Assembly: GCA_046760505.1 (NCBI GenBank)
Contig: JBHIEG010000028.1
Span: 1-19,916, forward strand
Direction: 5' to 3'
DNA: 19,916 nucleotides
Origin: Candidatus Hydrothermarchaeota archaeon
GTDB lineage: Archaea > CAYFZR01
The translations under genes were made by a program, and so were the position numbers. Under the pieces are notes generated by a model. The model had not been told where the DNA came from. It did no database searches and worked only from the letters and a program-made list of their open reading frames with translations. Of the stretch, positions 276 through 16,633 are shown piece after piece (positions within the stretch are counted from its first letter, which is position 1; each line of letters starts with the position of its first letter).

Positions 276-503
276 ATGGAAGAAAAGGAGGAGAAAAAAT
301 TCACCACGGTATCGATACCCACTCCTTTATTCGAGAAAATAAAGAAGAGAATTGAGGGAACTGGCTTTACATCTGTATCCAGTTACGTAACCTATGTTCT
401 GAGAGAGATAGTGGCTGAAGAAGAGGAAGAAGAAGAGCCCTTTACGGAAGAAGACGAGGAGAGAGTAAAGGAAAGACTCAGAGCCTTGGGCTACCTGGAC
501 TGA
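276..503 (+). CDS. CopG/ribbon-helix-helix family protein with acidic linker and C-terminal RLRALGYLD tail
   Basis: Beta-strand FTTVSIP, followed by helix LFEKIKKRIE, a G turn and helix SVSSYVTYVLRE, fits the RHH pattern. Strong SD; first gene of the operon. Confidence 0.8.
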   Translation: MEEKEEKKFTTVSIPTPLFEKIKKRIEGTGFTSVSSYVTYVLREIVAEEEEEEEPFTEEDEERVKERLRALGYLD

Positions 504-511
504 GGGATACC

Positions 512-1642
512 ATGATAAAGCCCCACGGAGGAAAGTTGATAAATAGGGTCTTCAGAGAAAAGGAAGAAGAGGCAAGGGAACTTCACAGGATAGCGATAAG
601 GAGAGATCAGGCAAAAGATGCTGAAAACATAGCAAATGGCGTTTTCTCCCCCTTGGAAGGCTTTTTAAATCAGGAGGATTATAAGAGCGTTCTCTATGAA
701 AAGAGACTTGCGAATGATATTCCATGGACCATTCCCATTGTACTGGATGTTTCCGAAGAAGATTCTAAGAAAATAAGTGAGGGAGAAGATTTAGCATTAA
801 CGTACAAGGACAAAATTGTGGCGATCCTCCATTTGGAAGAAAAATATGATTATGATAAGAAAGAGTTCGCTGAAAAGATATTCGGAACCGATGATAAAAA
901 TCATCCCGGCGTGAATAAAGTTTATGAAATGAAAGAAGTTCTTCTAGCAGGAAATATAGATCTTATAAGCGAGACAGACAATCCCTTTCTCAAATATACC
1001 CTGAAACCCATAGAAACGAGAATACTGTTCAAGGAGAAAGGATGGAAAACAATCGCGGGTTTTCAAACCAGAAATGTACCTCATTTAGGGCATGAATACG
1101 TTCAAAAGACCGCTTTAACATTTGTGGATGGAATATTCATAAATCCCGTGATAGGAAAAAAGAAAAAGGGAGATTTCAGAGATGATGTCATCCTTGAAAC
1201 CTACGAAGCGCTTATAAATAATTATTATTTGAAAGACAGCGCTGTTTTAAGCATTCTACAGTTCGAGATGAGATATGCAGGTCCAAGAGAGGCAATATTC
1301 CATTCTATTGTAAGAAAGAACTTTGGATGCACCCATTTCATAGTGGGAAGAGATCACGCGGGAGTAGGGGATTACTACGATCCCTATGAGGCTCAGGAGA
1401 TATTTAATGAGTTTCCGGATCTGGGTATAGTTCCTATTTTCTTTAAATCCTTCTTTTACTGCAAGAGATGTTCTGGCATAGCAAATGAAAAAACATGTCC
1501 GCATGATGAAAATCAACGCATAAAGTTCAGCGGAACAAGGATAAGAGAGGCTATTTCAAAAAAGAAGATTCCTCCAAAGGAATTGATGAGAAAGGAAGTT
1601 GCGGAGATAATACTTAGAAAGAAAAATCCTTTCGTGGTCTGA
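512..1642 (+). CDS. sat: Sulfate adenylyltransferase (ATP sulfurylase, Sat type)
   Basis: N-terminal PHGGKL, FSPLEGF, FQTRNVPHLGH (QxRN and HxxH), VGRDHAG, and a CKRC...CPH zinc site. Confidence 0.97.
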   Translation: MIKPHGGKLINRVFREKEEEARELHRIAIRRDQAKDAENIANGVFSPLEGFLNQEDYKSVLYEKRLANDIPWTIPIVLDVSEEDSKKISEGEDLALTYKDKIVAILHLEEKYDYDKKEFAEKIFGTDDKNHPGVNKVYEMKEVLLAGNIDLISETDNPFLKYTLKPIETRILFKEKGWKTIAGFQTRNVPHLGHEYVQKTALTFVDGIFINPVIGKKKKGDFRDDVILETYEALINNYYLKDSAVLSILQFEMRYAGPREAIFHSIVRKNFGCTHFIVGRDHAGVGDYYDPYEAQEIFNEFPDLGIVPIFFKSFFYCKRCSGIANEKTCPHDENQRIKFSGTRIREAISKKKIPPKELMRKEVAEIILRKKNPFVV

Positions 1643-2599
1643 ATGAAAAGAACTCTAATAATTCATCACTGGGACACAGATGGGATATGCTCTACTGCTT
1701 TACTTTTAAACTATCTTAAAGGATATATAAAAAACACCACTCCTGAAATAGGAAATTATTTTCTAAGAGATTCAGAGATAGAGGAATATGAAGATTATGA
1801 ATCCATAGTAATAGCCGATATAAGTATTCCGAGAGAAGACGTTCTGAAGATCAAAGAGAAAACAAACGCAGATATCATGATATTCGATCATCATTTGCAA
1901 GAGGAGATCAAGGAAGTATTTCATTGCAATCCTATTTTGAGAGGAGAGAGTCCGGAGATATATCCATCCACATCATGGGTGATAAACGATTATCTTAAAA
2001 ATCCTGTAAGCCTTCTATCGGTTCTCGGAGCGGTGGGAGATGCTGGAGAGAAGATAAGGGAAAATGAGTTCATCTTTCAAAAAATAAGGGAAAACATCGA
2101 TTTAAGATTTGAAGATCTGCTAAAAATGACAGAGCTAATAGATTCTAACTACAAGATTAATGACAGAAAGGGAGTAGAGAATGCGGTACATTATCTTTTA
2201 AAGAATATTAATCATCCTGAAAGAATTTTAGAAAATAGAGAATGGAATAAGAATCTAAGAAAAATAAATGTGGAGATTCAAAAGATCTTGGAAGAGCCCT
2301 CTCTATTCGAGGATGATTCTCTTATTCTTAAAGAATTTGAATCTGATTACAGCATAATTTCTTCTATAGCGAGAAATCTAGCATGGAACGCAAAAAAGAC
2401 AGCTATTGTCATCAACAAAGGCTTCTTCAAAGATAGAGATCAGATATATGTGAGAGGCGATGGATGTTTAGATAGAATTTTAGAGTTAGCAAGGGAGAGA
2501 GGCTACTCTTCTGGAGGAAAAAAGGAAGTAGTGGGTATAGTTTTGCCTAAAGAAGAATCTGAGAAATTTCTGGATAAAATACTGGAGGAACTGAGATGA
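1643..2599 (+). CDS. DHH family phosphoesterase (possible PAP phosphatase)
   Basis: DHH motifs HHWDTDG, IADI, FDHH and GAVGD; degenerate DHHA1-like SGGKKEVVG; starts immediately after the sat stop codon. Confidence 0.85.
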   Translation: MKRTLIIHHWDTDGICSTALLLNYLKGYIKNTTPEIGNYFLRDSEIEEYEDYESIVIADISIPREDVLKIKEKTNADIMIFDHHLQEEIKEVFHCNPILRGESPEIYPSTSWVINDYLKNPVSLLSVLGAVGDAGEKIRENEFIFQKIRENIDLRFEDLLKMTELIDSNYKINDRKGVENAVHYLLKNINHPERILENREWNKNLRKINVEIQKILEEPSLFEDDSLILKEFESDYSIISSIARNLAWNAKKTAIVINKGFFKDRDQIYVRGDGCLDRILELARERGYSSGGKKEVVGIVLPKEESEKFLDKILEELR

Positions 2600-3960
2600 G
2601 GGTTTTAGTGATAGGCCTGGACTCTGCTCCCCCGGAGCTGGTATTCGATGAATTCATAGATGAGCTTCCCAACATAAAGAAAATGGTTGAAAATGGTATT
2701 TATGGTAAATTAGAGAGTATTCATCCTCCCATAACAATTCCTGCATGGATATCCATGGCAACAAGCAAGAGTCCTGGCAAACTGGGACTCTACGGATTCA
2801 GACACAGAAAGAATTACTCTTATAAAGATATCTGGATTGCAAATTCCCATTCCATTAAAGAAAAAGCGATCTGGGATATTTTAGCAGAGCATGATAAAAA
2901 ATCCTGTTTGGTAGGAGTTCCTCCAAGCTATCCTCCCAAAAAAATAAACGGCTGGTTGATATCCTGCTTCATAACTCCTGATACAAAAAAAGATTATACC
3001 TATCCTAAAGAATTGAAAAGAGAAATAGAGAGCCTGGTGGGAGAATACATCGTAGATGTTGAATTTAGAACCGATGAAAAGGATAAACTGCTGAAAGAAA
3101 TCTATGAAATGACAGAGAAGAGATTTGAGGTAATTAAATATCTCCTGCAAAATAAAGACTGGGACTTCTTCATGTTTGTGGAAATAGGCTTGGATAGAGT
3201 ACAGCATGCATTCTGGAAGTTCTTTGATAAGGAGCATCATCTCTATCAGAAAAGCGAATACGAAAACGTAATTAAAGACTACTACAGGTATCTGGACAGA
3301 GAAATTGGAGATCTTCTTTCTATAGCAAGGGATGCCATTATATTAATTGTTTCTGACCATGGCGCAAAAAGAATGAAAGGTGCTTTTTGTATAAACGAGT
3401 GGCTGATAGAAAAGGGATATCTAAGGCTAAAGAACAAGCCAGATAGAATCATAAGTTTGGATAAGGCAGAGATAGACTGGAAAAATACAAAAGCATGGGG
3501 CTGGGGCGGTTATTACGCGAGAATTTTCTTGAATGTGGAGGGAAGAGAGCCTCAGGGAACAATAAAGCCCGCTAGTTATGAAAGTTTCAGAGATGAAATT
3601 GCAAGGGAAATAATGAATATAAGAGACTCGCAGGAAAATCCCATGGATAATAAGATTTTAAAGCCAGATGAGATTTTTGATGAATACAACGGAGACTATC
3701 CGGATCTCATGGTTTACCTCGACGATTTATACTGGAGATCAGCCGGCACGATAGGACATAATTCCTTATATTTAAAGGAAAACGATACAGGTCCTGATGA
3801 TGCGGTTCACTCTGCGCATGGAATTTTCATAATATACGATCCAAGGAAGAAGATCGGAAAAGAGGTTGATGCAAGCATACTGGATATTGCTCCCACGATT
3901 CTGGATCTCATGGGAATACCTGTTCCCCGTGATATGGAAGGTAGCATTATAAGGGTGTAA
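2596..3960 (+). CDS. Alkaline phosphatase superfamily protein (type I phosphodiesterase/nucleotide pyrophosphatase family)
   Basis: VLVIGLDSA, PPITIPAW (Thr nucleophile position), DRVQH, VSDHG, DAVHSAHG, SILDIAPTIL and DMEG. No signal peptide. ATGA overlap with the DHH gene. Confidence 0.9.
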   Translation: MRVLVIGLDSAPPELVFDEFIDELPNIKKMVENGIYGKLESIHPPITIPAWISMATSKSPGKLGLYGFRHRKNYSYKDIWIANSHSIKEKAIWDILAEHDKKSCLVGVPPSYPPKKINGWLISCFITPDTKKDYTYPKELKREIESLVGEYIVDVEFRTDEKDKLLKEIYEMTEKRFEVIKYLLQNKDWDFFMFVEIGLDRVQHAFWKFFDKEHHLYQKSEYENVIKDYYRYLDREIGDLLSIARDAIILIVSDHGAKRMKGAFCINEWLIEKGYLRLKNKPDRIISLDKAEIDWKNTKAWGWGGYYARIFLNVEGREPQGTIKPASYESFRDEIAREIMNIRDSQENPMDNKILKPDEIFDEYNGDYPDLMVYLDDLYWRSAGTIGHNSLYLKENDTGPDDAVHSAHGIFIIYDPRKKIGKEVDASILDIAPTILDLMGIPVPRDMEGSIIRV

Positions 3961-3963
3961 GAA

Positions 3964-4491
3964 ATGGAAAAGGGATTTGTCATATGGCTCACAGGACTTC
4001 CTGCATCAGGCAAAACCACCATAGCAAGAGAATTAGAGAGTATTTTGAGAGATAAAGGAATTAAAGTAGAAGTATTTGATGGAGACGAGGTAAGAAAAAA
4101 ATTGAGCCCTGACTTAGGATTCAGCAAGAGAGATAGAGAAATTCATGCGAAAAGAGTGGCTTATGTCAGCAAACTTCTTGCCAGAAACGGTGTGGCAGTA
4201 ATAGTTGCTCTAATATCTCCATACAGAAAATTTAGAGAAAATGCAAGAAAGGAAATCGGCGATTTCATAGAGGTTTACGTGAAATGCTCTCTCGAAACAT
4301 GCATGAAAAGAGATCCCAAGGGTATATTCAAAAAGGCGTTGAGAGGAGAGATAAATAATTTGACAGGAGTCCAAGATCCCTATGAAGAGCCTTTGAATCC
4401 TGAAGTAACAGTTAATACAGAAGTAGAGACTCCTGAAGAAAGTACAATGAAAATAATAGAGAAACTCAAGGATCTTGGATATCTGGAGTGA
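3964..4491 (+). CDS. cysC: Adenylyl-sulfate (APS) kinase
   Basis: WLTGLPASGKTT P-loop, DGDEVR, LGFSKRDR, ISPYR, RDPKG and TGVQDPYEEP. Confidence 0.97.
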   Translation: MEKGFVIWLTGLPASGKTTIARELESILRDKGIKVEVFDGDEVRKKLSPDLGFSKRDREIHAKRVAYVSKLLARNGVAVIVALISPYRKFRENARKEIGDFIEVYVKCSLETCMKRDPKGIFKKALRGEINNLTGVQDPYEEPLNPEVTVNTEVETPEESTMKIIEKLKDLGYLE

Positions 4492-4495
4492 TGAA

Positions 4496-5284
4496 ATGGA
4501 TCCTGCTCACCTTATCATCGGCTTTGTAGTAGGCTTCTTGATAGGTCTTAGCGGAGTTGGAGGAGGAGCAATTTTAACTCCTCTACTAATTTTTTCCGGT
4601 GTTTTGCCGATGTATGCGGTGGGCTCTAGTCTGGTATATGCATCTCTTACAAAGAGCCTCGGCTCCGTATTGCATCATAGAAAGGACAATATAGAGTTCA
4701 GTACGGTTAAGATCCTACTCTTAGGAAGTGTTCCTGCCTCATTTTTAGGCATACTATTGCTCAACTACCTCAAAAGTAAATTTAGCTTCCAGTTCCTCAA
4801 CGCATTCATAAGTTCCTTGCTGGCCATAATTTTGATTCTGGTGGCAATCATATATTTCTCACAGATAATGGGGAGTGGAATTAAACTGAAGAATCCTTCT
4901 AAGAAGAAACTGATTTTAGCCGGCTTTATAGTAGGAATAACCGTTCAGCTAACATCTGTTGGAAGCGGAGTCTTGGTAACGTTGTTTTTGCTTCCCATTT
5001 TAGTTCCCAGAAAGGTGGTGGGAACCGATGTATTCCATGCATTCGTGCTGACAAGTTTCGCAGGTATGATGCAATTTGGCATTGGAAACGTGTTGCCCTC
5101 TCTGGTTCTTGTGCTTCTGATCGGATCGATTCCAGGAGTAGTAATAGGCGTGAGTCTGAGCTCCAGAATACCTATAAAGCCTTTTCATATAATTCTAACC
5201 TTTGTGATATTTTTCTCTGGATTGCTTTTGCTCCTGAAGAACTTTGGCTTCATCATGGTTACAGATTTCTTGCAGGAGAAATGA
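4496..5284 (+). CDS. TauE/SafE (TSUP) family sulfite/organosulfur transporter
   Basis: Duplicated motifs GLSGVGGGAILTP and TSVGSGVLVT, VVGTD, and many hydrophobic segments. Start moved from TTG 4475 to ATG 4496, which follows SD GGAGTGA and removes the overlap with cysC. Confidence 0.88.
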   Translation: MDPAHLIIGFVVGFLIGLSGVGGGAILTPLLIFSGVLPMYAVGSSLVYASLTKSLGSVLHHRKDNIEFSTVKILLLGSVPASFLGILLLNYLKSKFSFQFLNAFISSLLAIILILVAIIYFSQIMGSGIKLKNPSKKKLILAGFIVGITVQLTSVGSGVLVTLFLLPILVPRKVVGTDVFHAFVLTSFAGMMQFGIGNVLPSLVLVLLIGSIPGVVIGVSLSSRIPIKPFHIILTFVIFFSGLLLLLKNFGFIMVTDFLQEK

Positions 5285-5350
5285 TCATCTTGTTATTACA
5301 TGGTAAATTAGATATAGATAAAATAACAAAAGATGTTTCTCGGTAGTTGC

Positions 5351-6292
5351 ATGAGGTACCTGATCTTGATTCTGTTAATCGGCGTCTCTGGAGCAGATAC
5401 CCTACTCTACACGCCGGGAATGCTCATAGAAAAGCAGGGAGACACCGTGGTAATACCTGCAACGATATATCATGATGAAAACTATAAACTCGAAGAGGTA
5501 AGCCTTTATTTGAAGCAATCTGGATTTATTACTCCAAATAAGACCAGCATAAAATACAAGAACGTTTGTCCGCGTTTGCCGAAGAGAGAGAAATTCTTCC
5601 TGGAAATTCCCAAGCGAACAGGTGAGGGAGTCTACATCGTAGATGTTATAATGGACTATGTGTACAAAGGAGAAAGATACAGAAAGATAAAGAGCATTCC
5701 TGTCTATGTATTGGAGAGGAGGGTTCATCTTTTTTCGGTTACCGCAAGGGATTCCATCACGCCAGGAGATTTTCTGATTCTAAACCTTTTTGTGGTAAAC
5801 ACAAATGAGAAAGAAGAGTCTTTCGCCTTACTTGTGAACTTTAGGAACGTATCGATAACAAAGATCTACAAAATAGGCGGGGATCAGCAAATAAATTATG
5901 GTCTGGCTTTAAAGATTCCAGAAAATATAACCCTCGGCTACCAGAAAATAACGGTGGACATGTACTCGGGAATCACCCATGAGAAATACGAGAAGTGGGT
6001 AAAAGTAGTTCCAAAAAATCTCCAGTATACGGTAGTTGTAAATCCTGAAACAGACTCCATGTCTTCAGATTTGTTAAAAGATGATTATAAAGTTGTATCC
6101 TGCGATGAAAATGTAGAGGGAAATCTTATTGTTATAGGGGGTGAAGAGACCAACAGATATGCCTCAGGTTTAGGACTGGGACTAAAGGCGTATAATCTGG
6201 GAGAAAGGGACATAATACTAATTGCTGGAAGAGATAGAGAAGAAACCTTGATGTTAACGCGTTATTTTCTGGAAATAGAAAAAAATATATAA
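5351..6292 (+). CDS. Exported protein with beta-sandwich-like domains and an S-layer C-terminal-like domain
   Basis: Signal peptide MRYLILILLIGVSGA from ATG 5351 (the ORF track starts at 5333). C-terminal NLIVIGG...N...IILIAGRDREET resembles the Methanococcales/Thermococcales S_layer_C pattern. Confidence 0.6.
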   Translation: MRYLILILLIGVSGADTLLYTPGMLIEKQGDTVVIPATIYHDENYKLEEVSLYLKQSGFITPNKTSIKYKNVCPRLPKREKFFLEIPKRTGEGVYIVDVIMDYVYKGERYRKIKSIPVYVLERRVHLFSVTARDSITPGDFLILNLFVVNTNEKEESFALLVNFRNVSITKIYKIGGDQQINYGLALKIPENITLGYQKITVDMYSGITHEKYEKWVKVVPKNLQYTVVVNPETDSMSSDLLKDDYKVVSCDENVEGNLIVIGGEETNRYASGLGLGLKAYNLGERDIILIAGRDREETLMLTRYFLEIEKNI

Positions 6293-6329
6293 CTGAAAGA
6301 ACATCATTTGCTTGGAGATGGGGGTAAAC

Positions 6330-7031
6330 ATGAAAAAATCTATAGTAGTTCTCCTGTTAATTGGGATCTTGATTTTACCCATGTGCCTCCAAGAGGAAGC
6401 AATTCCTCCAAAGACGGCAGAGGCAATCAAAGAAGAGGTTAAGAAGGAAATAGAGAAGCCTCCTTTAATTGAAGAGAAACCTCCGTTGGTACCAGAGAAA
6501 CCTAAAGAGCCAACAATTGAGATTCCCATAGTGACCCTTAAGGCAACCAAAGAGGAACTTCCTTGGGCAATACTGGTTGATACAAAAAAAGATGCCACAA
6601 TCGATTACCTAAAATCTGAGGGTTTCAGGGTTTATTTATATGAGGAATGGTTCTCTCTAACCGTATTTCCCAGATACGATGAAGTTTTAATTCTGAGGAC
6701 GGAAGATCCAATATTGCTCATGTACGGCGCGAGATACGCCAAACTCACAAACAAACTCCTTGTTGTAGGTCCCTGCGGCTGTGAAATAACCAAACTGGAG
6801 TACATCACCAAGAGACATGCAGCAAGTGGTGTCATCCTCTTGGGAGAGGAAAAGTGTCTCCTTCCCGGTGAAGTAAGCAAACTTAAAGCCATCCTAGAAA
6901 GGTTCGTAACAGTAGTCACGATGGAAACTACTGCGGAGGTAGCAAAAAAGGTCTATGAAGAAACCGGAAGAAGAGGAGTCTACGGAGGCGGCGGGGTGAA
7001 AAGAAAAGTTCCACCCGCTAACATAGGTTAA
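6330..7031 (+). CDS. Putative lipoprotein-like surface protein with Pro/Glu/Lys linker and divergent cell-wall-binding-repeat-2-like domain
   Basis: MKKSIVVLLLIGILILPMC is a basic n-region, h-region and Cys. EKPP repeats follow. The segment DEVLIL...GARYAKLTNKLLVV...VILLGEE...ETTAEVAKKV resembles CW_binding_2. Confidence 0.5.
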   Translation: MKKSIVVLLLIGILILPMCLQEEAIPPKTAEAIKEEVKKEIEKPPLIEEKPPLVPEKPKEPTIEIPIVTLKATKEELPWAILVDTKKDATIDYLKSEGFRVYLYEEWFSLTVFPRYDEVLILRTEDPILLMYGARYAKLTNKLLVVGPCGCEITKLEYITKRHAASGVILLGEEKCLLPGEVSKLKAILERFVTVVTMETTAEVAKKVYEETGRRGVYGGGGVKRKVPPANIG

Positions 7032-7032
7032 C

Positions 7033-7890
7033 TCATTCAACGTTTATCCAGAGATGAGTTTCGCGATAGGGTTCGGTAAAATTATTCTCTTTGTATAGTA
7101 AAAACTCCAACTTCAAATCCTTACCTTTTTTATTGGGAGTAAATATAATGGGCTCCTCGAAAGTCTCGTTGTGGTCTAGGCGCAGGGTTTTCTCAATTAA
7201 AGTTTCGTTGGATAGTTTTATTCTGAGCGTATAGTTGATCGTTTCGTATTCATGATTTACTATGCCCAGTATAACCTTTCCGGAATCTCCTAACTTCAAT
7301 TCAGTTGGATAATTCTTAGCAGATCCGTTTGGACCTAAAATGTAAAATTCCGTAAATCTTTCTCCTTTCTTTGGAGTTACAATAACGTATGCAAGCATGC
7401 ATACCGCTAAAAAGATGGAAATGATGAGAAAGATCGTCAGTATCTTGTCTACCTTACTTTTAGGCTTCTCAAAGATCTCTGCCTTAAATGATTCATAGAT
7501 CTCTTTAAATGGAACAAAAAATCTCTCCTCCTCTGGGAGTTTTAGTCTCCTTAGATGCGCGGTTACCACAAGCGCTAGGGTGAATACGGATAGAGTAACA
7601 ATTATCGGAATCAGTCTAATACCGAAGGGCGTGTAGTTTAAAACCAAGCCGAGCAATGGAACAACCGCTATGCTAAGTCCAAAACTCAAGGCAAATCTCT
7701 CTATTCCATCTAGATCTCCTTTTCTTGGAAATAAGGATGCTATCAATGCATATCCCGGCAGAAAAAGGACCATCATTATTCCAAGAATCACCCTGACTGG
7801 AGTCTTATTCAAGGGGGGAACGAGTACAAAGAGGAGTGTAAGTAGTACAAGCGCGGTTACGATTTGCAGATCTTTTGGAATCTTGAGCAT
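7033..7890 (-). CDS. DUF1616 domain membrane protein
   Basis: LFLPGYALIASLFP, ERFALSFGLSIAVVP, ERFTEFYILG...NYP, GIVNHEY and PYRETHLWINV are characteristic of archaeal DUF1616 proteins. Confidence 0.9.
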   Translation of the reverse strand: MLKIPKDLQIVTALVLLTLLFVLVPPLNKTPVRVILGIMMVLFLPGYALIASLFPRKGDLDGIERFALSFGLSIAVVPLLGLVLNYTPFGIRLIPIIVTLSVFTLALVVTAHLRRLKLPEEERFFVPFKEIYESFKAEIFEKPKSKVDKILTIFLIISIFLAVCMLAYVIVTPKKGERFTEFYILGPNGSAKNYPTELKLGDSGKVILGIVNHEYETINYTLRIKLSNETLIEKTLRLDHNETFEEPIIFTPNKKGKDLKLEFLLYKENNFTEPYRETHLWINVE

Positions 7891-7937
7891 ATGTTTAACT
7901 GAACTTTACATAAAAATAAGTTTATGCATGAGAATGT

Positions 7938-8252
7938 TCAAGATATGAGGACAAAATAGATCTTATTTATAAGTATGATGGTAAAAACTAATAACAAGGC
8001 TAAAATAGAGGCTTTTGTGCCGTTTGTCAGTGTTTTAATCCTTTTTGATATCGCTGACGTGGATAATTCCACTATGATCAAGAGCATGATAAGCGCTATG
8101 GTGGCAATCATTCCATTTGTCTCAAAATTCATGTGCAGTCCGGATACGGTAAGAGCATTGGTGGAAATCGCGCTGACACTTGATACAGAAGAAGTGGTTG
8201 TTGTGGTTGTGGTAACAGTAGAAGTGGTTGTGGTTATGGTCGATGAAATCAT
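7938..8252 (-). CDS. Small Thr/Ser-rich two-TM membrane protein
   Basis: N-terminal TTTTSTVTTTTTTTSS tract, then two hydrophobic helices separated by a basic loop. It has its own TATA box about 30 nt upstream and is co-oriented with its neighbours. Confidence 0.7.
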   Translation of the reverse strand: MISSTITTTTSTVTTTTTTTSSVSSVSAISTNALTVSGLHMNFETNGMIATIALIMLLIIVELSTSAISKRIKTLTNGTKASILALLLVFTIILINKIYFVLIS

Positions 8253-8275
8253 AAATGATATTCAAGCATACTCAT

Positions 8276-8292
8276 ATTTATAATTTTCTTTC
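8276..8292 (-). promoter_or_regulatory. BRE/TATA promoter for a probably leaderless transcript of the Thr-rich protein
   Basis: The minus strand reads GAAAGAAAA-TTATAAAT. The TATA box (8283-8276) starts 31 nt before the ATG at 8252, and there is no SD. Confidence 0.6.
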
Positions 8293-8303
8293 ATTATACT
8301 GAT

Positions 8304-8873
8304 CTAATCTCTTGTCTTTTGAATTATCCTATCTAACAGTTTTATCTCCTTTTCAGCGAAAAAAAGCGCTGTGTCATGGGCTTCTTCTACATTTTGCGTT
8401 ACAGGGGTACAAATCTGAATCATCATGCTGTACTTAAAGCTCGGAAGAAAGAATAAAACCTTGGATCTCCTCTCAAATATATTCAAGTACCATGCTATAA
8501 CCCATCTTTTTTCTCCGTTCTTTTCTACCAAAAGTTTCATCACATTTCTATCGTGGTAGATGGTTTTTTCTTTCGTTAATATGTTCCATCCGGCCAGTTT
8601 ATAGCATGTATACGGGTCCTGCAAACTTTTAAGCCCCCTACCTTTATAAAGCGCTATCCATGTCTTCACATCCTTGGATGTATACTGTTTTACGGCTACA
8701 GATTCTTTTTCTGATAGGGTAGACTCCCTGAATCCTGTTATAGTTGGAAACAACTCTTCCGATTTAAGCTCTGGAATTGAATCTCTTGGGAGAGGCTTTT
8801 GAACTATTAAAGGTATCCAAGACAGTATAAGTATGGTTAAGACAAGCAAGGCGTATCTCTGCTCTTTATTCAT
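8304..8873 (-). CDS. Exosortase-associated EpsI family protein (stand-alone)
   Basis: N-terminal TM, WIALY, and LQDPYTCYKLAGWNI, which matches the EpsI H-x-P-x-x-C-Y-x-x-x-G-W motif with the His lost. VIAWY follows. Overlaps the exosortase stop. Confidence 0.72.
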   Translation of the reverse strand: MNKEQRYALLVLTILILSWIPLIVQKPLPRDSIPELKSEELFPTITGFRESTLSEKESVAVKQYTSKDVKTWIALYKGRGLKSLQDPYTCYKLAGWNILTKEKTIYHDRNVMKLLVEKNGEKRWVIAWYLNIFERRSKVLFFLPSFKYSMMIQICTPVTQNVEEAHDTALFFAEKEIKLLDRIIQKTRD

Positions 8874-9657
8874 GGGCGAGCACCCTCAAATAAACTATCA
8901 TCAGGATCATGAACATTAACCAGCCTCCAAATATGTGAAACACTCCTTGAGCCAAGTGCATATTGTTTAGTGCTATCAGCAAGATCAGCATTAGTCTCAT
9001 GACATTAATTGCAGGTATGAGTAAGAGTATCGAAAGGCTTAAAATAGTTTTTCTCTTTAGGCTTTGGAGAGGTAAAAGAAAGATAAACGCTGTAAACACA
9101 AAAAAAGGTATCAGGATCTCTCCGCTACTGCAGAGAGGAGTTATATAGAACATAGGCACTCCTTCGTTGAGTATAACCGTATCTTTTAGAGATAGATCAG
9201 TACCCAATCCATTTAATATGTCGATGGCTAAGTTAGCCTCTAAAAGTGATAGTTTGGCTCCAAAATAGGTTATCACGTAGTAGTTTGGTGGTATTAAAAA
9301 TATTAAAAAGAGTATTGAAGGAATTGCTTTTTTTACCTTTTGAACAGGATAAAAGAGCAGTAAATAGCCAAATATGAAAGCCATTAGAGACAGAATCATT
9401 ACTTCCATCGAGAGATAGAACAGATTATACCTGAGAAAAGAGACAAGTACCAGTAAAATCAGACCCGCTACCCTGAAAAATTTTTCATTTTCACAGGGGA
9501 TTTTCCATCTTTCTTTAAATATAATAAAGGACATTATGGGCACCAGGATGCCGTGCCTTGACCACGGATCTTCGTACCAAATTGATAGAAGGCGAAAGAT
9601 CTCACTGCCGAAAAGAGGAATCAATGCGAGAATAAATACTGCATTTATGAATCGCAT
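8866..9657 (-). CDS. Exosortase/archaeosortase family transpeptidase (EpsH-like)
   Basis: WYEDPWSRHGILVP N-terminal motif, FLIFLIPP, and a catalytic triad context of PLCSS (Cys), INVMRL (Arg) and VFHIFGG (His). Start moved from 9852 to ATG 9657 to remove the overlap with the CPBP gene. Confidence 0.88.
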   Translation of the reverse strand: MRFINAVFILALIPLFGSEIFRLLSIWYEDPWSRHGILVPIMSFIIFKERWKIPCENEKFFRVAGLILLVLVSFLRYNLFYLSMEVMILSLMAFIFGYLLLFYPVQKVKKAIPSILFLIFLIPPNYYVITYFGAKLSLLEANLAIDILNGLGTDLSLKDTVILNEGVPMFYITPLCSSGEILIPFFVFTAFIFLLPLQSLKRKTILSLSILLLIPAINVMRLMLILLIALNNMHLAQGVFHIFGGWLMFMILMIVYLRVLAHE

Positions 9658-9682
9658 ACCGAGTAACTCTGTGTAGGATAAC

Positions 9683-9697
9683 TCTATAAATTTCTTT
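9683..9697 (-). promoter_or_regulatory. Internal BRE/TATA-like promoter upstream of the exosortase
   Basis: The minus strand reads AAAGAAA-TTTATAGA. The TATA box (9690-9683) starts 33 nt before ATG 9657. Confidence 0.45.
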
Positions 9698-10535
9698 ATA
9701 AAAATTTGTGATACGGGAGCATCTGAAACAACACCATGTTCACCATGAAGTGAGCGGCTATGGGAGTCATCAGACTTCTCGTAACATAAAAAATAATTCC
9801 AAATACTATTCCTACGTAGAATGTAAAAGCGATCTCCATGGAACTTAGCCATATGCTGTGCATGCCGCTGAATATAATGCTTGTCAATATGATTGCATAG
9901 AAAGAATCCGTAACCTTCAGTGCATTCGAGAGAAAAATCCCCCTGTATAGAAGCTCTTCTGTGAACCCAAGCATGAAAAATGTAGATACAGATACGAACG
10001 GATAGTAAGGTAAGACCTTTCCGGGAGAGAGTATTAAAAATTCAGTTATTCCAAGTATGGCTCCGAGTATCAGACCCAGGACAATGTTTTTCACGAAGTT
10101 TTCTCTGATCAGCCCTAGATCCCTAAGATCAAAGCCCTGATGATAGGCAAGGATCATGGAGGCTGGCAGCAGTATGGAATATGTTATCTGAAACTGATAG
10201 TGGGTCAGGAATAGATTTAAGGGAAGTCCGGAATTTACCAGACGGAGTAATGCGAAGAGTATAAAACTCTGAATTACGAGAACGATATTTCTTTCATCTA
10301 TAAAGAGAGGAGAAAGCACTGCGAGGATTATGAGTGCTACATACGCTACTATGCCCCAGTAGGTTGAGTGGTAGGAATAAATGCCCTCGCTGGATAGGAG
10401 AAACAGCGTAAATATCAATGGATACTTCATCTTGCTTAGGTTAAATCTTTCTAAGGAGAGATATTTAATAGCCAGTACAATGCAGGAGATTATTATAAGT
10501 ATATTCAAGATTAATACGGGAAAGCCGATGTTCAT
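9696..10535 (-). CDS. CPBP (Abi/type II CAAX, Rce1-like) intramembrane glutamic endopeptidase
   Basis: Three CPBP motifs, TEELLYRG (EExxxR), FSGMH (FxxxH) and AHFMVN (HxxxN), in a multi-TM protein. ATGA overlap with the 791-aa gene. Confidence 0.92.
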   Translation of the reverse strand: MNIGFPVLILNILIIISCIVLAIKYLSLERFNLSKMKYPLIFTLFLLSSEGIYSYHSTYWGIVAYVALIILAVLSPLFIDERNIVLVIQSFILFALLRLVNSGLPLNLFLTHYQFQITYSILLPASMILAYHQGFDLRDLGLIRENFVKNIVLGLILGAILGITEFLILSPGKVLPYYPFVSVSTFFMLGFTEELLYRGIFLSNALKVTDSFYAIILTSIIFSGMHSIWLSSMEIAFTFYVGIVFGIIFYVTRSLMTPIAAHFMVNMVLFQMLPYHKFL

Positions 10536-12907
10536 TCTTCCTCATCTCCCATCATGGCATAATTCTTGATGGCATAAATCGTGATGACAAATACAATCAG
10601 TGCGAGCGTAACCATTACCTTTAATGATCGAATTTTATCTTTGAGACTCGATAGATCATCTTTGGCAAATGATATTGTAATCTCAGCGTAATCATATGCA
10701 CGTTTAGCCTGAAGTTTGGAATCTGAATACAGGTGTGCCATGTACAGCGACCTTGCCTCGCTTTCATACTCTCTAGCCCTCTTGTAAAGGGACATCAGGT
10801 GATCCATGTCCTCCTTATCGGACTTGATCCAGAGGAACTCTACACTCTCCAGTTCTTTTATCAGATCACCTGCCTCTTTCAGCCTTTCCTCACATGATTT
10901 CAAATATTCCAATGCGGGTTCCTTTTCCTCAATTTCCTTCTTTCTTTCAATGTAACTGTACCTGTTTTCTGCAAGCGTTAAAAGCACGCTTGAAGAGTTC
11001 AAGAAGGAGTTTGCCCTGAGGAATTCTCCTTCAGAATATGCCTTTCTCGAGTCCTCCAACATCTTTTTGCTTAGATACAACAGTTCACTTGCATGGAGGG
11101 CGTCCGGGGATTTTATATAAGAAAGTTTATCTTCCAGCTCCAGGATCTCTTCCTCATTTTTTTCAATGCTTTTTGGAATTTTTTCTTTTATATAAGATAA
11201 TTTTTCGGTTTGTTTTCTTTTAAGTTCTGCCTTTCTTGTTTCCTGTATCCTTGCAATCTTTTTAAGTTCGTCATTGTAGTCTATTCTCAATGTTATATTG
11301 GTGGGAGATGTAAATTTATAGTAGAAAACGTCTTTTCCATCCTCTTTATATTGATACGCTGGAGGAGGAGAAGCTTTTTTAAGAATCAAACCTTCTGGAA
11401 GTTTTACTAAAATTTCAGCAAGAAAAACCTCTCTATTCAGAGCAGGTTTCAGGTAGAGGTAGTAATCAAAATCGCTCACTCTATTTATAAGATCTTTTGT
11501 ATAGGTCTCGATGGTATATCTGTATCGCCTTGTGTGCCTTACTGGCTCTCTAAAGGATGTTTGTATCAGGCTACCTTTGTCTTCCGGGATTACATTAAAT
11601 TTTAACGGCCCGTAGCGATCATATATCGCGAAAGAATTGGTGCTTCCCAGATTAAGATATATCCTGTCGTGGGTTATGTATGAAAAAGAGACATTGTTCT
11701 CGTATACTATGGTTCCGGTGAAATGGCAGGTTCCCGCCCCGGTTACATCAACGGTAAAGTAGACATTTGGATAGAAACCCTCTGAGCTTATGGCATGGGC
11801 TGGCAGCATTAATGCGAGAAGCAGAAACCAGAACCTCTTTCTAAAAAGGAAATAGAATATCAGCATCGTGAGTAGGGGTAGAACAGTGCCCATCGGGACA
11901 AATGGAACTGGAGGAATCACCTCTGGTTTGGTATAAACTTTTGCCCTCTTGATTTTCTCTCTCAAATAATCTAGAAGAAATGTCGCGGTTCTATTACTCT
12001 TGCGTATATCCACCGTCCATTTGCTCACCTCAGTAATTGGCAATTCAGTTTTAGGTATACTTACTTCGATGCTCTTTTCTCCCCATGAGATTGATGAACA
12101 CGATGCTAAACCGCTAAAATATGTTTTGTTCCATTTATACAATCTAAAAGAATCTCTTTCATCGATTTTAATCATGTAATCTGCTCCCATGGATGGAGGC
12201 TCCTCTCCGCTTGCTGATGTTGGCATCAAGGAAAGTGAGAATCCTGTTTTATTAGAGGAATCAGCATCGATCCATATGGTAAATTGCTTTGAGTAGGGCA
12301 GTGATTTCTCTATATCGCCCTCGGTTACGATCTTATAGTGCACGGTATCGTTCCCCTCAGATAGATATGAATTCACTATGTTTGATTCTGCAGGCGGCTT
12401 TTTTACATCCCCATCTTTGATAGAAGTTTTCCAGACCGGGGTTATGTTTTTTACAGATAGTTTTTCGATTTCTCTTCTATAATCAAAAAAATAGGCATTT
12501 GGGCGATTATACCTATCATATACAAAAAAAGGATAGAGACCATCTTCTTTTATGGAGGAAAGTTCAAATATAAGGATATATGGCTGAAGAGCCTTTAATT
12601 TTTCTAATTGAATGGAATAAGCCCTTTCCGCATGGAGTAATTTTGGCGTGATATTTAGAACCCTTATATCAATCCTCTTGGCATCAATGTCATAGGCTCT
12701 GAAATTCCTCGCGTATAAATTCTCAGAGAGTTCTATGGTTATGTTCTCCTTTTCCAAGTTTATGTCAGAGGTTAGAGTCACCATAGTACTTACAATAGGT
12801 CTTTGATCACTTGCTTTTTGGTCCGTGCATAAAATACTGGTCTGCGCGAGAGCAACGGGTAAAAGAAGTGCGATCAAGGTTACGAATGTTACATTTTTCA
12901 GAACCAT
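10532..12907 (-). CDS. Large bipartite exported/membrane-anchored protein: DOMON-like N-half, internal TM-RKR-signal peptide, C-half paralogous to the upstream gene
   Basis: 791-aa ORF with N-terminal signal peptide (LLPVALA), a WIDADSSNKTG...GADY...IEVSIP segment, an internal double hydrophobic segment at aa 330-372, a helical/coiled-coil region and a C-terminal TM. Confidence 0.8.
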   Translation of the reverse strand: MVLKNVTFVTLIALLLPVALAQTSILCTDQKASDQRPIVSTMVTLTSDINLEKENITIELSENLYARNFRAYDIDAKRIDIRVLNITPKLLHAERAYSIQLEKLKALQPYILIFELSSIKEDGLYPFFVYDRYNRPNAYFFDYRREIEKLSVKNITPVWKTSIKDGDVKKPPAESNIVNSYLSEGNDTVHYKIVTEGDIEKSLPYSKQFTIWIDADSSNKTGFSLSLMPTSASGEEPPSMGADYMIKIDERDSFRLYKWNKTYFSGLASCSSISWGEKSIEVSIPKTELPITEVSKWTVDIRKSNRTATFLLDYLREKIKRAKVYTKPEVIPPVPFVPMGTVLPLLTMLIFYFLFRKRFWFLLLALMLPAHAISSEGFYPNVYFTVDVTGAGTCHFTGTIVYENNVSFSYITHDRIYLNLGSTNSFAIYDRYGPLKFNVIPEDKGSLIQTSFREPVRHTRRYRYTIETYTKDLINRVSDFDYYLYLKPALNREVFLAEILVKLPEGLILKKASPPPAYQYKEDGKDVFYYKFTSPTNITLRIDYNDELKKIARIQETRKAELKRKQTEKLSYIKEKIPKSIEKNEEEILELEDKLSYIKSPDALHASELLYLSKKMLEDSRKAYSEGEFLRANSFLNSSSVLLTLAENRYSYIERKKEIEEKEPALEYLKSCEERLKEAGDLIKELESVEFLWIKSDKEDMDHLMSLYKRAREYESEARSLYMAHLYSDSKLQAKRAYDYAEITISFAKDDLSSLKDKIRSLKVMVTLALIVFVITIYAIKNYAMMGDEEE

Positions 12908-12908
12908 A

Positions 12909-14345
12909 TCATCCCTCTTTAATTTTTTCTTGGATCTTGGAGATTTTTTTATCGATTTCTTCCAACCTTCTCTCGTACTCCTCCTTGGATATCAGTTTTC
13001 TCTCATAGTCCTTGGATACTTTGATATACTCTTCCCTAAGCGACTCCAATGCTTCTGAGGGCTCTTCCATGCCAGAAATATAATCATAAAACCGGGAGAA
13101 TCTAAAGGCTATGTTCTCTTTGAATATCGCAAACACTCCTGCAAGAAGAATTACTCCGATTCCTAAGAGTGTTAATCGAACCATGGATTCTTTCCGTCTA
13201 ATCTCTCTGTCAGCAAGTGCAATAGCCTTAGAAGCATATTCCCAGGATTTTTTTGCCTCTACATTTGCTAAAAGATATTTTTTATTTTGGAGTGCTTTTT
13301 TCGCACTTTGATAATGGAGTTTTGAAGAGGAATATTCTTTGTTCACCCCGGTTACATTGGGCTCGATCCAGAGAAATCCATTCAGATGATCAAGTTTTTT
13401 TTCTATACGTCTCAAACTTTCATTAGCCATCTTTAGGTACATCAAACTAGATTTCAGAGCCTCTTTCTCAGTTTTTTGATTAAATTCTTCCAATTTGATT
13501 TGAATAGAATCAATCAAACGTGTCGATGATAACAGATAAGCCTCAGCGCTGTCAAAATCAGATTTTTTTAAATAGGACTGAGACAGTGCCAGCATTTCTT
13601 CTGCCTTATCTAAACACTCTAAGTACAGATCAACATTTCTCTCAACTTCTTGGAGTTCTGATGCAAGAGTCCTGAGACCGTTAATCCTCTCAATTTGGTT
13701 GGATATGTTTTGCTCTAACTCCAACGTTTTGGGCTCTGGGGGATTAAGTATCTTGGTGCCTCCTTTCTCACGGTTGTAGTGTATTGATATCCTTGTAAGA
13801 TCCGACATGGGCTTCAAATCATAGAAGAAGACAATTCTCTTTCCCTCTTTATATATCCGCTCTGGATCGGGTGAATAAGACCTGTACCTTGCGTTGTAAG
13901 GCAGTCTTATGAGTACATCAAGATCAGATACAGGTATTCCCTCGATGGTGCCGAATGTAAGGTTGAAGACGTATGAAAAAGTTCCAGTCTTGGTAACCAG
14001 TCCCTTTGAATAAAATTTCACCGTGTATCTTAAAACTTCTTTCGCAACGTCTCTTCTAAACTTAATGTCTATTGTTGATATATCTCCTTTTCTGATATCA
14101 TAATCAAAGGGTCCTTCCTCGCTTAATATTTCAACGTACCAGATTTCATCCACATTTAAGAATACAGTATCCTTGGTTGCGATTGTTTCATACTGAAGGT
14201 TGGAGTATGTAACGTTTAATACTATATAGGCAATTTCTTCCTCCAAAAGATCACAAGTTACCTTTATCTCCGGATGTATTCCAGAATAGCCCTGAACAGT
14301 AGAGAGAAGAGCGAGCATCATCAGCATCATAGCAATAAGTCTTAT
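12909..14345 (-). CDS. Exported beta-domain plus helical-stalk membrane protein with cytoplasmic SHOCT-like tail
   Basis: Signal peptide ending STVQG, TM LTLLGIGVILLAGVFAIF and tail LISKEEYERRLEEI. The ORF track starts at ATG 14330, but the SD position favours the in-frame ATA at 14345. Confidence 0.75.
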   Translation of the reverse strand: MRLIAMMLMMLALLSTVQGYSGIHPEIKVTCDLLEEEIAYIVLNVTYSNLQYETIATKDTVFLNVDEIWYVEILSEEGPFDYDIRKGDISTIDIKFRRDVAKEVLRYTVKFYSKGLVTKTGTFSYVFNLTFGTIEGIPVSDLDVLIRLPYNARYRSYSPDPERIYKEGKRIVFFYDLKPMSDLTRISIHYNREKGGTKILNPPEPKTLELEQNISNQIERINGLRTLASELQEVERNVDLYLECLDKAEEMLALSQSYLKKSDFDSAEAYLLSSTRLIDSIQIKLEEFNQKTEKEALKSSLMYLKMANESLRRIEKKLDHLNGFLWIEPNVTGVNKEYSSSKLHYQSAKKALQNKKYLLANVEAKKSWEYASKAIALADREIRRKESMVRLTLLGIGVILLAGVFAIFKENIAFRFSRFYDYISGMEEPSEALESLREEYIKVSKDYERKLISKEEYERRLEEIDKKISKIQEKIKEG

Positions 14346-14579
14346 GGTCGAACCTCCCCTGAGTTATCTTCTACCGTGAAATTTAAAAATTCTTCCATGA
14401 GCCACTGGATCTTTCGGCTATGAAGAAAAATATTACCTTAAAAACTTTGTCATCGGTAAAAATGTTGTATCCGCAAAATAATTAAATTGATTAAGAAATT
14501 CAAATAAAGGAGATAAACGACGGAGATAAATTGAGGGAAAGATAGTTAGAAATGAGAGTTTACATTAAAGGTGCTTGAG

Positions 14580-15851
14580 ATGAAAATCATAAGATGGAAT
14601 GATCTTTCTGAAATAGAGAAGGAGAGGATAGTTGACAGGGGAAGGGTAGAATTAACCAGGGCAATAGAAGCGGTGAGATCGATAGTAGATGATGTGAAGA
14701 TCAGGGGAGACAAGGCTCTGATAGATTATACAGAGAAATTCGACGGTGTAAGGCTTAAAGATCTGAGAGTAAGCGAAGAGGAATACGAGGAGGCTTTTTC
14801 TAAAGCAGAGAAGAAACTTATCAGAGCCATAGAAAGCGCCGCCAGGAACATAGAATCCTTTCACAAAAAACAGATTGATGTGGAATACAGAATCATTGAA
14901 GACGGGATAGAACTTAGAAGAATTGCTCGCCCCTTAGAGTCTGTAGGCATCTATGTGCCAGGAGGAAAGGCAGCCTATCCTTCCACTCTTTTGCATGCGG
15001 TTATACCTGCTAGAATAGCAGGGGTGGAAAATATTATAACATGCACTCCTCCCTTCAATGGCTCAATAAACCCATCAATACTGATAGCAGCAAGGATTCT
15101 TGGATTAAAGGAAATTTACAAGGTTGGGGGGGCTCAAGCCATAGCGGGAATGGCTTATGGTACGGAAACAATTAGGAAGGTTGATAAGATCATAGGACCC
15201 GGAAATATATACGTTACCGCTGCTAAAGAACTTGTCAGAGGAACCTGCGATATAGATTTTGTTGCGGGACCCAGCGAAATATTGATTCTCGCAGAAGAAG
15301 GCAATCCAAAATTTATTGCATCAGATCTCCTTGCTCAAGCAGAGCACGATGAATACGCTTGCGTTATAGCATGCGTTTTTGATGAAGAACTTGCTAAGAA
15401 GATTAAATTAGAAACCGAAAGGCTTCTCGAAGATCTATCAAGGAAGGATATAATTACCAAAGCAATGAAAAACGCTAAAATAATCGTTTTCGATAAACTA
15501 AAGGAAGGAATAAATTTCGTCAATAAATTTGCTCCAGAACACCTATCTTTGATGGTAAAAGATCCGGAAGAGGTATTAAAACAGATAAAAAATGCAGGCT
15601 CCATATTCATTGGTGAATACTCTCCAGTAGCAGCAGGGGACTATGCATCTGGCACAAATCATATCTTACCAACCCATGGCATGGCAAGATTCACATCTGG
15701 CATATCGGTAGATGACTTTTTAAAGAAGCCTACCGTACAGAAAATATCAAGGGAAGGTTTGAAGAAATTAAGAGAAACGGTAACGGTACTTGCAAGAACT
15801 GAGGGACTTGAAGCGCATGCAAGATCTGTAGAGATAAGATTTGAGGAATGA
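14580..15851 (+). CDS. hisD: Histidinol dehydrogenase
   Basis: [46 protein letters not shown] and [16 protein letters not shown] 14580 follows SD AGGTG (the ORF track uses GTG 14571). Confidence 0.97.
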
Positions 15852-15854
15852 TGC

Positions 15855-16613: not shown

Positions 16614-16633
16614 AGTATATTGGAGTAGTTTTT

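Follow-up and report, generated by a model that had tools for sequence, protein, structure and literature searches.

A sulfate-activation cassette in a Candidatus Hydrothermarchaeota archaeon, with an NPP-fold enzyme that may remove pyrophosphate and read LGY tails

We describe a group of co-directional genes at positions 276-5284 (plus strand) of contig JBHIEG010000028.1 of a Candidatus Hydrothermarchaeota archaeon, and interpret it as a self-contained, self-regulated and accessory sulfate-activation cassette. The whole stretch of 19,916 nucleotides (nt) that was analysed is hereafter called the window. The cassette comprises a ribbon-helix-helix (RHH) regulator, the ATP sulfurylase Sat, a DHH-family phosphatase, an enzyme of 454 amino acids (aa) of the alkaline phosphatase (AP) superfamily with the fold of nucleotide pyrophosphatases/phosphodiesterases (NPP), the kinase CysC and a TauE/SafE permease. 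For the 454-aa enzyme we favour, with a probability of roughly 0.45, the role of a Sat-coupled pyrophosphate remover that reads the LGY tails found at the C-terminus of some of its partners. In the proposed scheme, TauE would import sulfate, Sat would convert sulfate and ATP into adenosine 5'-phosphosulfate (APS) and pyrophosphate (PPi), CysC would then turn APS into 3'-phosphoadenosine 5'-phosphosulfate (PAPS), and the DHH enzyme would clear the 3'-phosphoadenosine 5'-phosphate (PAP) left after PAPS use, by hydrolysis to AMP and phosphate; the RHH protein would regulate the operon. The NPP-fold enzyme would act as a two-metal, Thr47-dependent hydrolase that removes PPi, thereby driving the unfavourable reaction of ATP sulfurylase forward. 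A further prediction is that its catalytic cleft holds the ...RL(R/K)xLGY tail of the RHH protein, of CysC and of the CysD encoded elsewhere in the genome, which could amount to docking or to pseudo-substrate control, tying enzymes and regulator to the state of the pathway. We lean towards pyrophosphate removal because of the measured activity of a counterpart, the existence of Sat fusions, a paralogue beside CysDN and the very high conservation of the enzyme. The activity itself is proposed by analogy with the literature on the Thermococcus counterpart, as a likeness of function and not as membership of family I of the pyrophosphatases.

The window (contig C28) belongs to a genome of 2.17 Mb in 142 contigs, with a completeness score of 100% and a contamination of 5.67%, from a phylum that is represented by two species genomes only in the genome collection. 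The first gene of the cassette, missing from the initial annotation, encodes an RHH/CopG-like regulator of 75 aa (276-503), recognised from its open reading frame (ORF) and an alignment of 31 homologues; it ends 8 nt 5' of sat and is part of the same unit. Its product has an acidic linker followed by a C-terminal tail, ...EERVKERLRALGYLD, and E59, L68, L71, G72 and Y73 are invariant in the alignment. Sat (512-1642) is a homo-oligomeric ATP sulfurylase (PF01747, 303.7 bits; PF14306, PUA_2, 186 bits; NF003166, 548 bits for a cut-off of 387). It is followed by the DHH-family protein (1643-2599; PF01368), the NPP-fold enzyme (2596-3960; PF01663, 158.7 bits for a cut-off of 23), the APS kinase CysC (3964-4491; PF01583, 203 bits; TIGR00455, 221.5 bits for a cut-off of 138.7) and the TauE/SafE (DUF81) membrane permease (4496-5284; PF01925, 125.2 bits), a putative sulfate importer. 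The successive junctions from sat to TauE measure 0, -4, +3 and +4 nt, the last one with the ATG at 4496 as the TauE start (a TTG at 4475 is the alternative). This is the tight packing that the initial annotation had reported for the five genes, and its view that the operon makes PAPS is supported. It had also found no PAPS reductase (cysH), apr, sulfite reductase or sulfotransferase in the window, and profile scans agree: none of the 19 larger ORFs matches any of these families.

The DHH protein had been proposed to remove PAP in the manner of NrnA. The PAP phosphatase role holds up well, and the closest relative is MtPAPP rather than NrnA: a PDB search with a threshold of E <= 0.01 gave a single match, the M. 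thermolithotrophicus PAP phosphatase 8a8k (E 9.2e-42), with residues 4-310 aligned to residues 21-325 of 8a8k and with the HHWDTDG and DHH motifs in register. Judged by this alignment, it is a PAP phosphatase of the archaeal MtPAPP type, whose namesake hydrolyses PAP at 50 umol min-1 mg-1 (PMC10322725, section 8). The assimilation pathway of M. thermolithotrophicus resembles the cassette in its stand-alone ATP sulfurylase and APS kinase and in its exonuclease-derived DHH PAP phosphatase, but includes in addition an AprAB-like PAPS reductase and Fsr (PMC10322725), neither of which was detected in the window's genome. An AP/NPP-family gene goes unmentioned in that paper, in which the words "phosphodiesterase" and "alkaline phosphatase" have 0 occurrences.

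By profile and by fold, the 454-aa enzyme is a member of the NPP / type I phosphodiesterase family, with a Thr nucleophile and a two-metal ligand set. PF01663 is its sole Pfam match at E <= 0.001, without any match to a sulfotransferase, to the sulfatase family PF00884 or to the family I pyrophosphatases (PF00719), and some homologues carry precomputed labels of PF00884 beside PF01663. The motif PPITIPAW, already singled out in the initial annotation for its Thr, covers residues 44-51, and an alignment of 31 homologues shows Thr47 to be invariant, together with D9, D200, H204, D254, H255, D401 and H405; D200, H204, D401 and H405 are putative metal ligands. The AlphaFold model (predicted local distance difference test, pLDDT, 92.3) has ENPP1, ENPP3 and the Xanthomonas NPP as nearest solved folds, with a template modelling (TM) score of about 0.6 (Foldseek E 2.3e-18 and TM 0.60 to 4gtw). 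In a profile alignment with the Xanthomonas NPP, T47 falls on the Thr of PSLTFPN, and D9 and D254-H255 (the DHG motif) are aligned too. The enzyme thus shares with the NPPs (Xanthomonas NPP 2gsn, ENPP1 4gtw, ENPP3) the fold, the Thr nucleophile in P-x-x-T-x-P, the DHG metal motif and the two-metal site, but differs from them by being cytoplasmic, by an extra insert at about residues 270-400, by an identity of 12-19% and by the predicted binding of a peptide tail.

Among 8000 candidates scored, 7239 are homologues of the enzyme at E <= 0.001. The best 120 are 60-69% identical to it and carry labels of Asgard archaea, Bathyarchaeota, Verstraetearchaeota and bacteria, an identity across such labels which fits a universal small substrate. 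A thiol-based, CysH-like chemistry through Cys265 was considered and rejected, as position 265 is Ala in an otherwise conserved fusion of Sat with the AP enzyme (P0218).

By gene content and order, the unit is a further member of the known Thermococcales sulfate-activation cassette of the P. yayanosii / T. onnurineus type. The five-gene cluster of P. yayanosii (pych_17520-17560) is given as copG, ATP sulfurylase, DHH phosphoesterase, type I phosphodiesterase/nucleotide pyrophosphatase and APS kinase, with DUF81/TauE adjoining (PMC8268124, Jin et al. 2021), that is, the genes of the window in the same order, with a PF01663 enzyme in the fourth place. The cluster is listed there for Ferroglobus, Aciduliprofundum, Aeropyrum and Ignicoccus as well, and the legend of its Figure 1B counts F. 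placidus among the carriers; in a Ferroglobus metagenome-assembled genome we found a Sat-AP-CysC-TauE locus whose AP enzyme is 61% identical to that of the window. Jin et al. speculate that the phosphodiesterase of the cluster degrades PPi (PMC8268124). According to their section 3.3, P. yayanosii has no identified sulfotransferase or enzyme that converts sulfite to sulfide, and it therefore shares with the window the puzzle of making PAPS without an evident outlet. Unlike the Thermococcales, the host of the window belongs to a phylum of two species in the collection, and its sister species has no cassette.

In T. onnurineus, TON_1704-1707 are named APS kinase, pyrophosphatase, PAP phosphatase and ATP sulfurylase (PMC4463584, section 2.6.4). 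TON_1705 is tabulated as acting on PPi with a kcat of 2.1 s-1, a Km of 18.8 uM, a kcat/Km of 1.1e5 M-1 s-1 and a pH optimum of 9.5 (PMC9653972, Table 1, citing Lee et al. 2009). A literature search on AP-superfamily sulfotransfer with PAPS in archaea gave, among the papers listed and judged by titles and the openings of abstracts, no description of the enzyme of the window, and a search on COG3379 gave nothing bearing on it.

The initial annotation had suggested counting how often this AP subfamily sits next to sat and cysC without other sulfotransferases. The neighbourhoods examined are those of the best 80 of 521 confirmed metagenome matches, with AP homologues 54-80% identical to the enzyme; a gene counted as a neighbour if it lay at most 2.5 kb from the AP gene (4 kb for TauE) and on its strand. 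Sat and/or CysC accompany the AP gene in 74 of the 80 loci (Sat in 59, CysC in 61, both in 46), an MtPAPP-type DHH gene in 12 and TauE in 8. When only the 40 loci whose flanks reach 2.5 kb or more upstream and 1.5 kb or more downstream are considered, the counts are 37 for Sat and/or CysC, 31 for Sat, 33 for CysC, 27 for both, 8 for the DHH gene and 6 for TauE. The association of the AP gene with Sat/CysC is far from chance. Three loci with ample flanks (L027, L048 and L058) have neither Sat nor CysC. These statistics rest on metagenome contigs; a scan of genome contigs with a single protein gave 6 loci. Among four close genome loci, Sat and CysC adjoin the AP gene in two, while the remaining two show nothing of the kind within 7 kb. 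Among 90 representatives of neighbour clusters searched in Pfam, from which short ORFs, clusters of overlapping spurious ORFs and single-locus ORFs had been left out, no canonical sulfotransferase family was present.

Physical fusions point in the same direction. At E <= 1e-30, 188 homologues occur among proteins of 796-2270 aa, and at least 120 of these are Sat-AP fusions: all 120 long homologues listed have the architecture PUA_2 + ATP-sulfurylase + Phosphodiest, at about 860 aa, and a Sat-AP cluster is listed in the Atlas too. The three fusions that were inspected keep the PPIT(I/V)PAW and SDHG motifs (with Ala at position 265 in one). As the fusion partner is Sat and not CysC, the enzyme is joined to the step that forms PPi. 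Some eukaryotes have an ATP sulfurylase fused with APS kinase and with a pyrophosphatase domain of family I. The Sat-AP fusions would resemble these in joining a pyrophosphate remover to ATP sulfurylase, and differ from them in that the domain has the NPP fold instead of belonging to family I.

A diverged paralogue gives a second arrangement of this kind, around a non-homologous ATP sulfurylase. Contig C54 of the same genome (6979 bp) carries, in order, CysD, CysN, a small DUF2281-like ORF, an AP/NPP paralogue and a glucose-1-phosphate thymidylyltransferase (TIGR01208, 497 bits). The paralogue is 30% identical to the enzyme of the window, has Ser in the nucleophile motif and is split into frames of 304 and 148 aa, which may reflect a frameshift or an assembly error. 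It adjoins CysDN, an ATP sulfurylase that is not homologous to Sat, as well as the thymidylyltransferase, and both of these enzymes form PPi.

The same fold and linkage could also suit a nucleotide pyrophosphatase that acts on APS, on PAPS or on an aberrant analogue (adenylyl-molybdate or selenate products, for instance), thereby limiting or proofreading the pool of activated sulfate. The nearest folds, ENPP1 and ENPP3, cleave nucleotide phosphoanhydrides, and the linkage to Sat and CysC is tight. We nevertheless judge this role highly improbable, since a hydrolase of this kind, co-expressed with Sat and even fused to it, would run a futile cycle beside it, and the parts of the cited literature that deal with these enzymes gave no evidence for such substrates.

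The second half of the role that we favour, the reading of LGY tails, comes from a rare C-terminal motif and from a predicted complex. ORFs that end in L..LGY plus up to 5 residues number 7 of the 20,696 ORFs of at least 40 aa in the genome of the window, and three of the seven are the RHH protein (RLRALGYLD), CysC (KLKDLGYLE) and the CysD of contig C54 (KLRALGYM). Of the related loci, 65 have 260 nt of room or more upstream of the first cassette gene, and in 54 of them a small tail-bearing ORF ends no more than 900 nt before that gene; this count is too low, since certain Sat frames begin 5' of the true start. The tail aromatic residue is Tyr in 59/59 upstream tails, the search pattern permitting Phe, Trp and His too. 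The tail is present in CysC at 20 of 60 loci and in 2 of 11 AP paralogues, and occurs in none of 77 AP enzymes, 60 Sat or 14 DHH proteins. Two further loci, both without Sat and CysC and both in the sulfatase (PF00884) neighbour cluster, have directly upstream of the AP gene an ORF of 624 aa (L022, 5-1876) or 588 aa (L058, 1351-3114) that ends in ...LRRMGY(I/V)(D/E). The CysD of E. coli K-12 (4422-5330, minus strand of its locus) has ...SMELKKRQGYF as its C-terminus, a relaxed form of the RL(R/K)xLGY tail; the origin of the tail may lie in an ancient trait of the CysD C-terminus. We know of no such AP enzyme in E. coli.

The predicted complex of the AP enzyme with the RHH protein has a score of 0.61, versus 0.01 for the best control, with a contact agreement of at least 89% over three runs and a partner pLDDT of at least 72. 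The mark used for this score is reached by 116 of 157 solved complexes and by 2 of 215 mismatched pairs, figures that are a rough guide here as own alignments were used. On the RHH side, the modelled interface consists of residues 55-56, 60-61, 63-65 and 67-75. On the AP side, it is formed by residues 47, 67-69, 81, 83-86, 112-113, 125-129, 132, 154-158, 287-289, 303-306, 383-385, 396, 398 and 401, among them T47, F68, R69, D154, F157, R158, W303-Y306, A383-T385 and D401. Many of these residues are invariant, including the nucleophile and one putative metal ligand. The model supports, rather than shows, binding of the RHH tail in the catalytic cleft of the enzyme.

The same evidence has prompted us to consider whether the invariant Tyr of the LGY tails (on RHH, CysC, CysD and some sulfatase-fold proteins) is a substrate of the enzyme, which would add or remove a group there, either as a feedback switch or as a sulfuryl relay. 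The group could be sulfate, or a nucleotidyl group transferred by the usual NPP chemistry, with PAPS, APS or ATP as the source. The placing of RHH residues 67-75 in the modelled cleft, in contact with T47 and D401, speaks for such a chemistry, together with the constancy of the Tyr, the rarity of a tail that is nevertheless found on RHH, CysC and CysD, its recurrence on CysC, and the tailed 588-624-aa ORFs upstream of the AP gene. On the other hand, the model gives a pose and not a chemistry, and the best-supported contacts include no Tyr73-Thr47 pair; modifying the cassette's own parts would leave the fate of the bulk PAPS unexplained; and the ending of the E. coli CysD suggests that the tail may have an older role inside ATP sulfurylase. 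On balance we regard action on the tail Tyr as unlikely. A more specific proposal would make the NPP-fold enzyme a PAPS-dependent protein-tyrosine sulfotransferase of a new fold, which loads the invariant Tyr of the ...RLxxLGY tails on RHH, CysC, CysD and, elsewhere, sulfatase-fold proteins, the sulfo-Tyr tail being a feedback signal for the operon and possibly an aryl-sulfate donor (a sulfuryl-carrier peptide) for glycan sulfation of the Agl30/Agl31 kind described below; this we hold to be very unlikely.

Any role of the enzyme has to be set against the fate of PAPS, and a search of the whole genome, which the initial annotation had proposed, found no known consumer. Matches to NIR_SIR, to the sulfotransferase families PF00685 and PF13469, to the sulfatase family PF00884 and to ComA were all lacking in the genome; a coenzyme M route was rejected for want of a ComA match. 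PF03567 (Sulfotransfer_2), PF09037 (Stf0) and PF17784 (Sulfotransfer_4) gave no match either, which are weak negatives since the control genomes were silent too. The PF01507 matches in the genome are CysD and a 640-aa protein of the PRK13795 type (PUA + PAPS_reduct + ferredoxin), the only CysH-like protein. It was rejected as the reductase of the cassette, as it lies below the cysH, APS reductase and PAPS reductase cut-offs and is conserved (78% identical) in the sister species, which has no cassette; it is not tied to the cassette, and may still be a reductase. An AprAB-like PAPS reductase was rejected as well. The sole TIGR02061 match has 37 bits for a cut-off of 642, and this protein has SdhA as its best PDB match (462 bits, versus 115 bits to 8a8o); its gene lies between a fumarase and a Fer2_3+CCG subunit, which indicates a fumarate reductase. 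This region of contig C7 (1877-6857 of its locus) encodes the fumarase, the TfrA/SdhA-like flavoprotein and the TfrB-like Fer2_3+CCG protein, near a methylmalonyl-CoA mutase fragment and an aldehyde:ferredoxin oxidoreductase. In the sister species, the AprA/flavoprotein profile gave no match.

Profile and homology searches found no AP enzyme, Sat or strong CysC in the sister species, and the cassette is therefore accessory. A second, weak match to the APS kinase family occurs in both species (C24:18339-18788, 90 bits; C39:24910-25362 in the sister, 85 bits) and is probably a different P-loop kinase.

The distribution of the enzyme was followed in 121 genomes, of completeness not given, from the phylum of the Promethearchaeota locus. 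The AP enzyme (E <= 1e-80) occurs in 42 of them, CysC (E <= 1e-30) in 51, canonical sulfotransferases (PF13469 over its cut-off, or PF00685) in 41, PF00884 in 46 and NIR_SIR in none (0/121). Among the 51 genomes with CysC, those with the AP enzyme have a canonical sulfotransferase in 10 cases and none in 21, whereas those without it have one in 18 cases and none in 2 (Fisher p 5e-5, a value that is overstated because genomes of one phylum are kin). Canonical sulfotransferases thus occur in 13 of the 42 genomes with the AP enzyme overall, and in 10 of 31 if CysC is present. Proteins of the sulfatase fold are found in 27/42 genomes with the AP enzyme versus 19/79 without it; of the 21 genomes that have CysC and the AP enzyme and lack a canonical sulfotransferase, 13 encode a protein of the sulfatase fold and the remaining 8 lack this as well. 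In 11 genomes CysC lies in a frame of 472-586 aa, presumably a fused PAPS synthase, and all of these lack the AP enzyme and have PF13469/PF00685.

These results bear on the central proposal of the initial annotation, namely that the 454-aa enzyme is a PAPS-dependent sulfotransferase of a new type, in which Thr47 takes the sulfuryl group from PAPS and gives it to a glycan, a lipid or a metabolite, with the DHH protein clearing PAP. No result lent direct support to sulfation of a sugar, lipid or metabolite, and the published cassette, the tabulated pyrophosphatase activity of TON_1705 and the Sat fusions all speak for another role; the complementary distribution in Asgard genomes is what speaks for the sulfotransferase idea. 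The failure to find a PAPS consumer in the genome, with a single CysH-like protein that the cassette-free sister shares, also favours it. So do the glycan-synthesis genes (UDP-glucose dehydrogenase, sugar nucleotidyltransferase, glycosyltransferases, flippases) that flank 35 of the 80 loci, 10 of which form one syntenic bacterial group and are not independent. A precedent is offered by Agl30 (VNG1056C) and Agl31 (VNG1057C) of Halobacterium salinarum, which deletion and heterologous expression identify as N-glycan sulfotransferases of the AP superfamily (PMC11980604). Both are archaeal, as is the enzyme of the window, but have the sulfatase fold (PF00884-like) and not the NPP fold, and the text of that paper names no sulfate donor, the term PAPS having 0 occurrences in it. 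Jespersen and Wagner (2023) have moreover postulated that such archaea possess a sulfotransferase of a non-canonical kind (PMC10322725, section 11).

Against a glycan or metabolite sulfotransferase stand the published pyrophosphatase activity of the counterpart and a fusion with Sat rather than with CysC. An identity of 60-69% across domains would be unusual if the acceptors were lineage-specific. The Asgard pattern is not strict either, since nearly a third of the genomes with both CysC and the AP enzyme hold canonical sulfotransferases too, its significance is inflated by kinship, and the AP enzyme co-occurs with sulfatase-fold proteins, which are more direct candidates for an activity like that of Agl30/31. 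As for the acceptor, the complex model would point, if to any, to a protein tail with an invariant Tyr and not to the glycan put forward initially. We consider this form of the proposal quite unlikely, and the sulfotransferase readings taken together rather doubtful.

Several observations also count against the role that we prefer, the removal of pyrophosphate. The Asn of the NPP motif T-F-P-N, which we take to contact a phosphoryl oxygen, is replaced in the enzyme by Ala50 (T-I-P-A-W). The equivalence with TON_1705/PYCH_17550 rests on gene order, on the Pfam name and on the Ferroglobus locus. A family I pyrophosphatase-like gene is present in the genome (PF00719, contig C16) and in the sister species, and the canonical pyrophosphatase of T. 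onnurineus, Ton1914, has a kcat of about 3e4 s-1 (PMC9653972), so that a dedicated slow pyrophosphatase looks redundant. The PAP phosphatase built into the cassette implies that PAPS is being spent, and the genome searches revealed no known enzyme to spend it. Asgard genomes with CysC and the AP enzyme mostly lack PF13469/PF00685, a pattern unexpected for a pure helper. Finally, the modelled position of the tail peptide, across the nucleophile, would suit a substrate better than a docking partner. This redundancy, the PAP phosphatase, the missing consumer, the complementary sulfotransferase pattern and the Tyr peptide predicted over the nucleophile are arguments for seeing the enzyme as a consumer of PAPS.

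The published question addressed here is how PAPS is consumed by archaea that make it while lacking both a reductase and a sulfotransferase (PMC10322725, section 11; raised for P. yayanosii in PMC8268124, section 3.3). The window offers a clean case of it: a genome scored 100% complete, negative searches for a consumer, a deep-branching phylum and a sister species without the cassette, and the question is narrowed to a single small, soluble enzyme and a peptide of 20 residues. Should the enzyme be simply a pyrophosphatase, the finding would amount to routine annotation. If it truly uses PAPS, a new sulfotransferase fold would extend across Asgard archaea, Bathyarchaeota, Thermococcales and many bacteria.

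Directly after TauE, and in the same direction, the window has two ORFs at 5333-7031, orf6 (319 aa) and orf7 (239 aa), with no Pfam or NCBIfam match. They are candidate exported proteins on account of their N-terminal hydrophobic stretches, and may share the transcript of the cassette. Both were considered as hidden sulfotransferases and rejected, having no family match and N-termini that point to export. On the minus strand, positions 7033-14330 hold an envelope island with a DUF1616 membrane protein, a DUF3485-like protein, an exosortase/archaeosortase-family protein, a CPBP (Rce1-like) intramembrane protease and two large proteins (791 and 473 aa) without a family match. The housekeeping genes hisD, hisF and purP (formate-dependent FAICAR synthetase type) at 14571-17731 mark the end of the accessory region.

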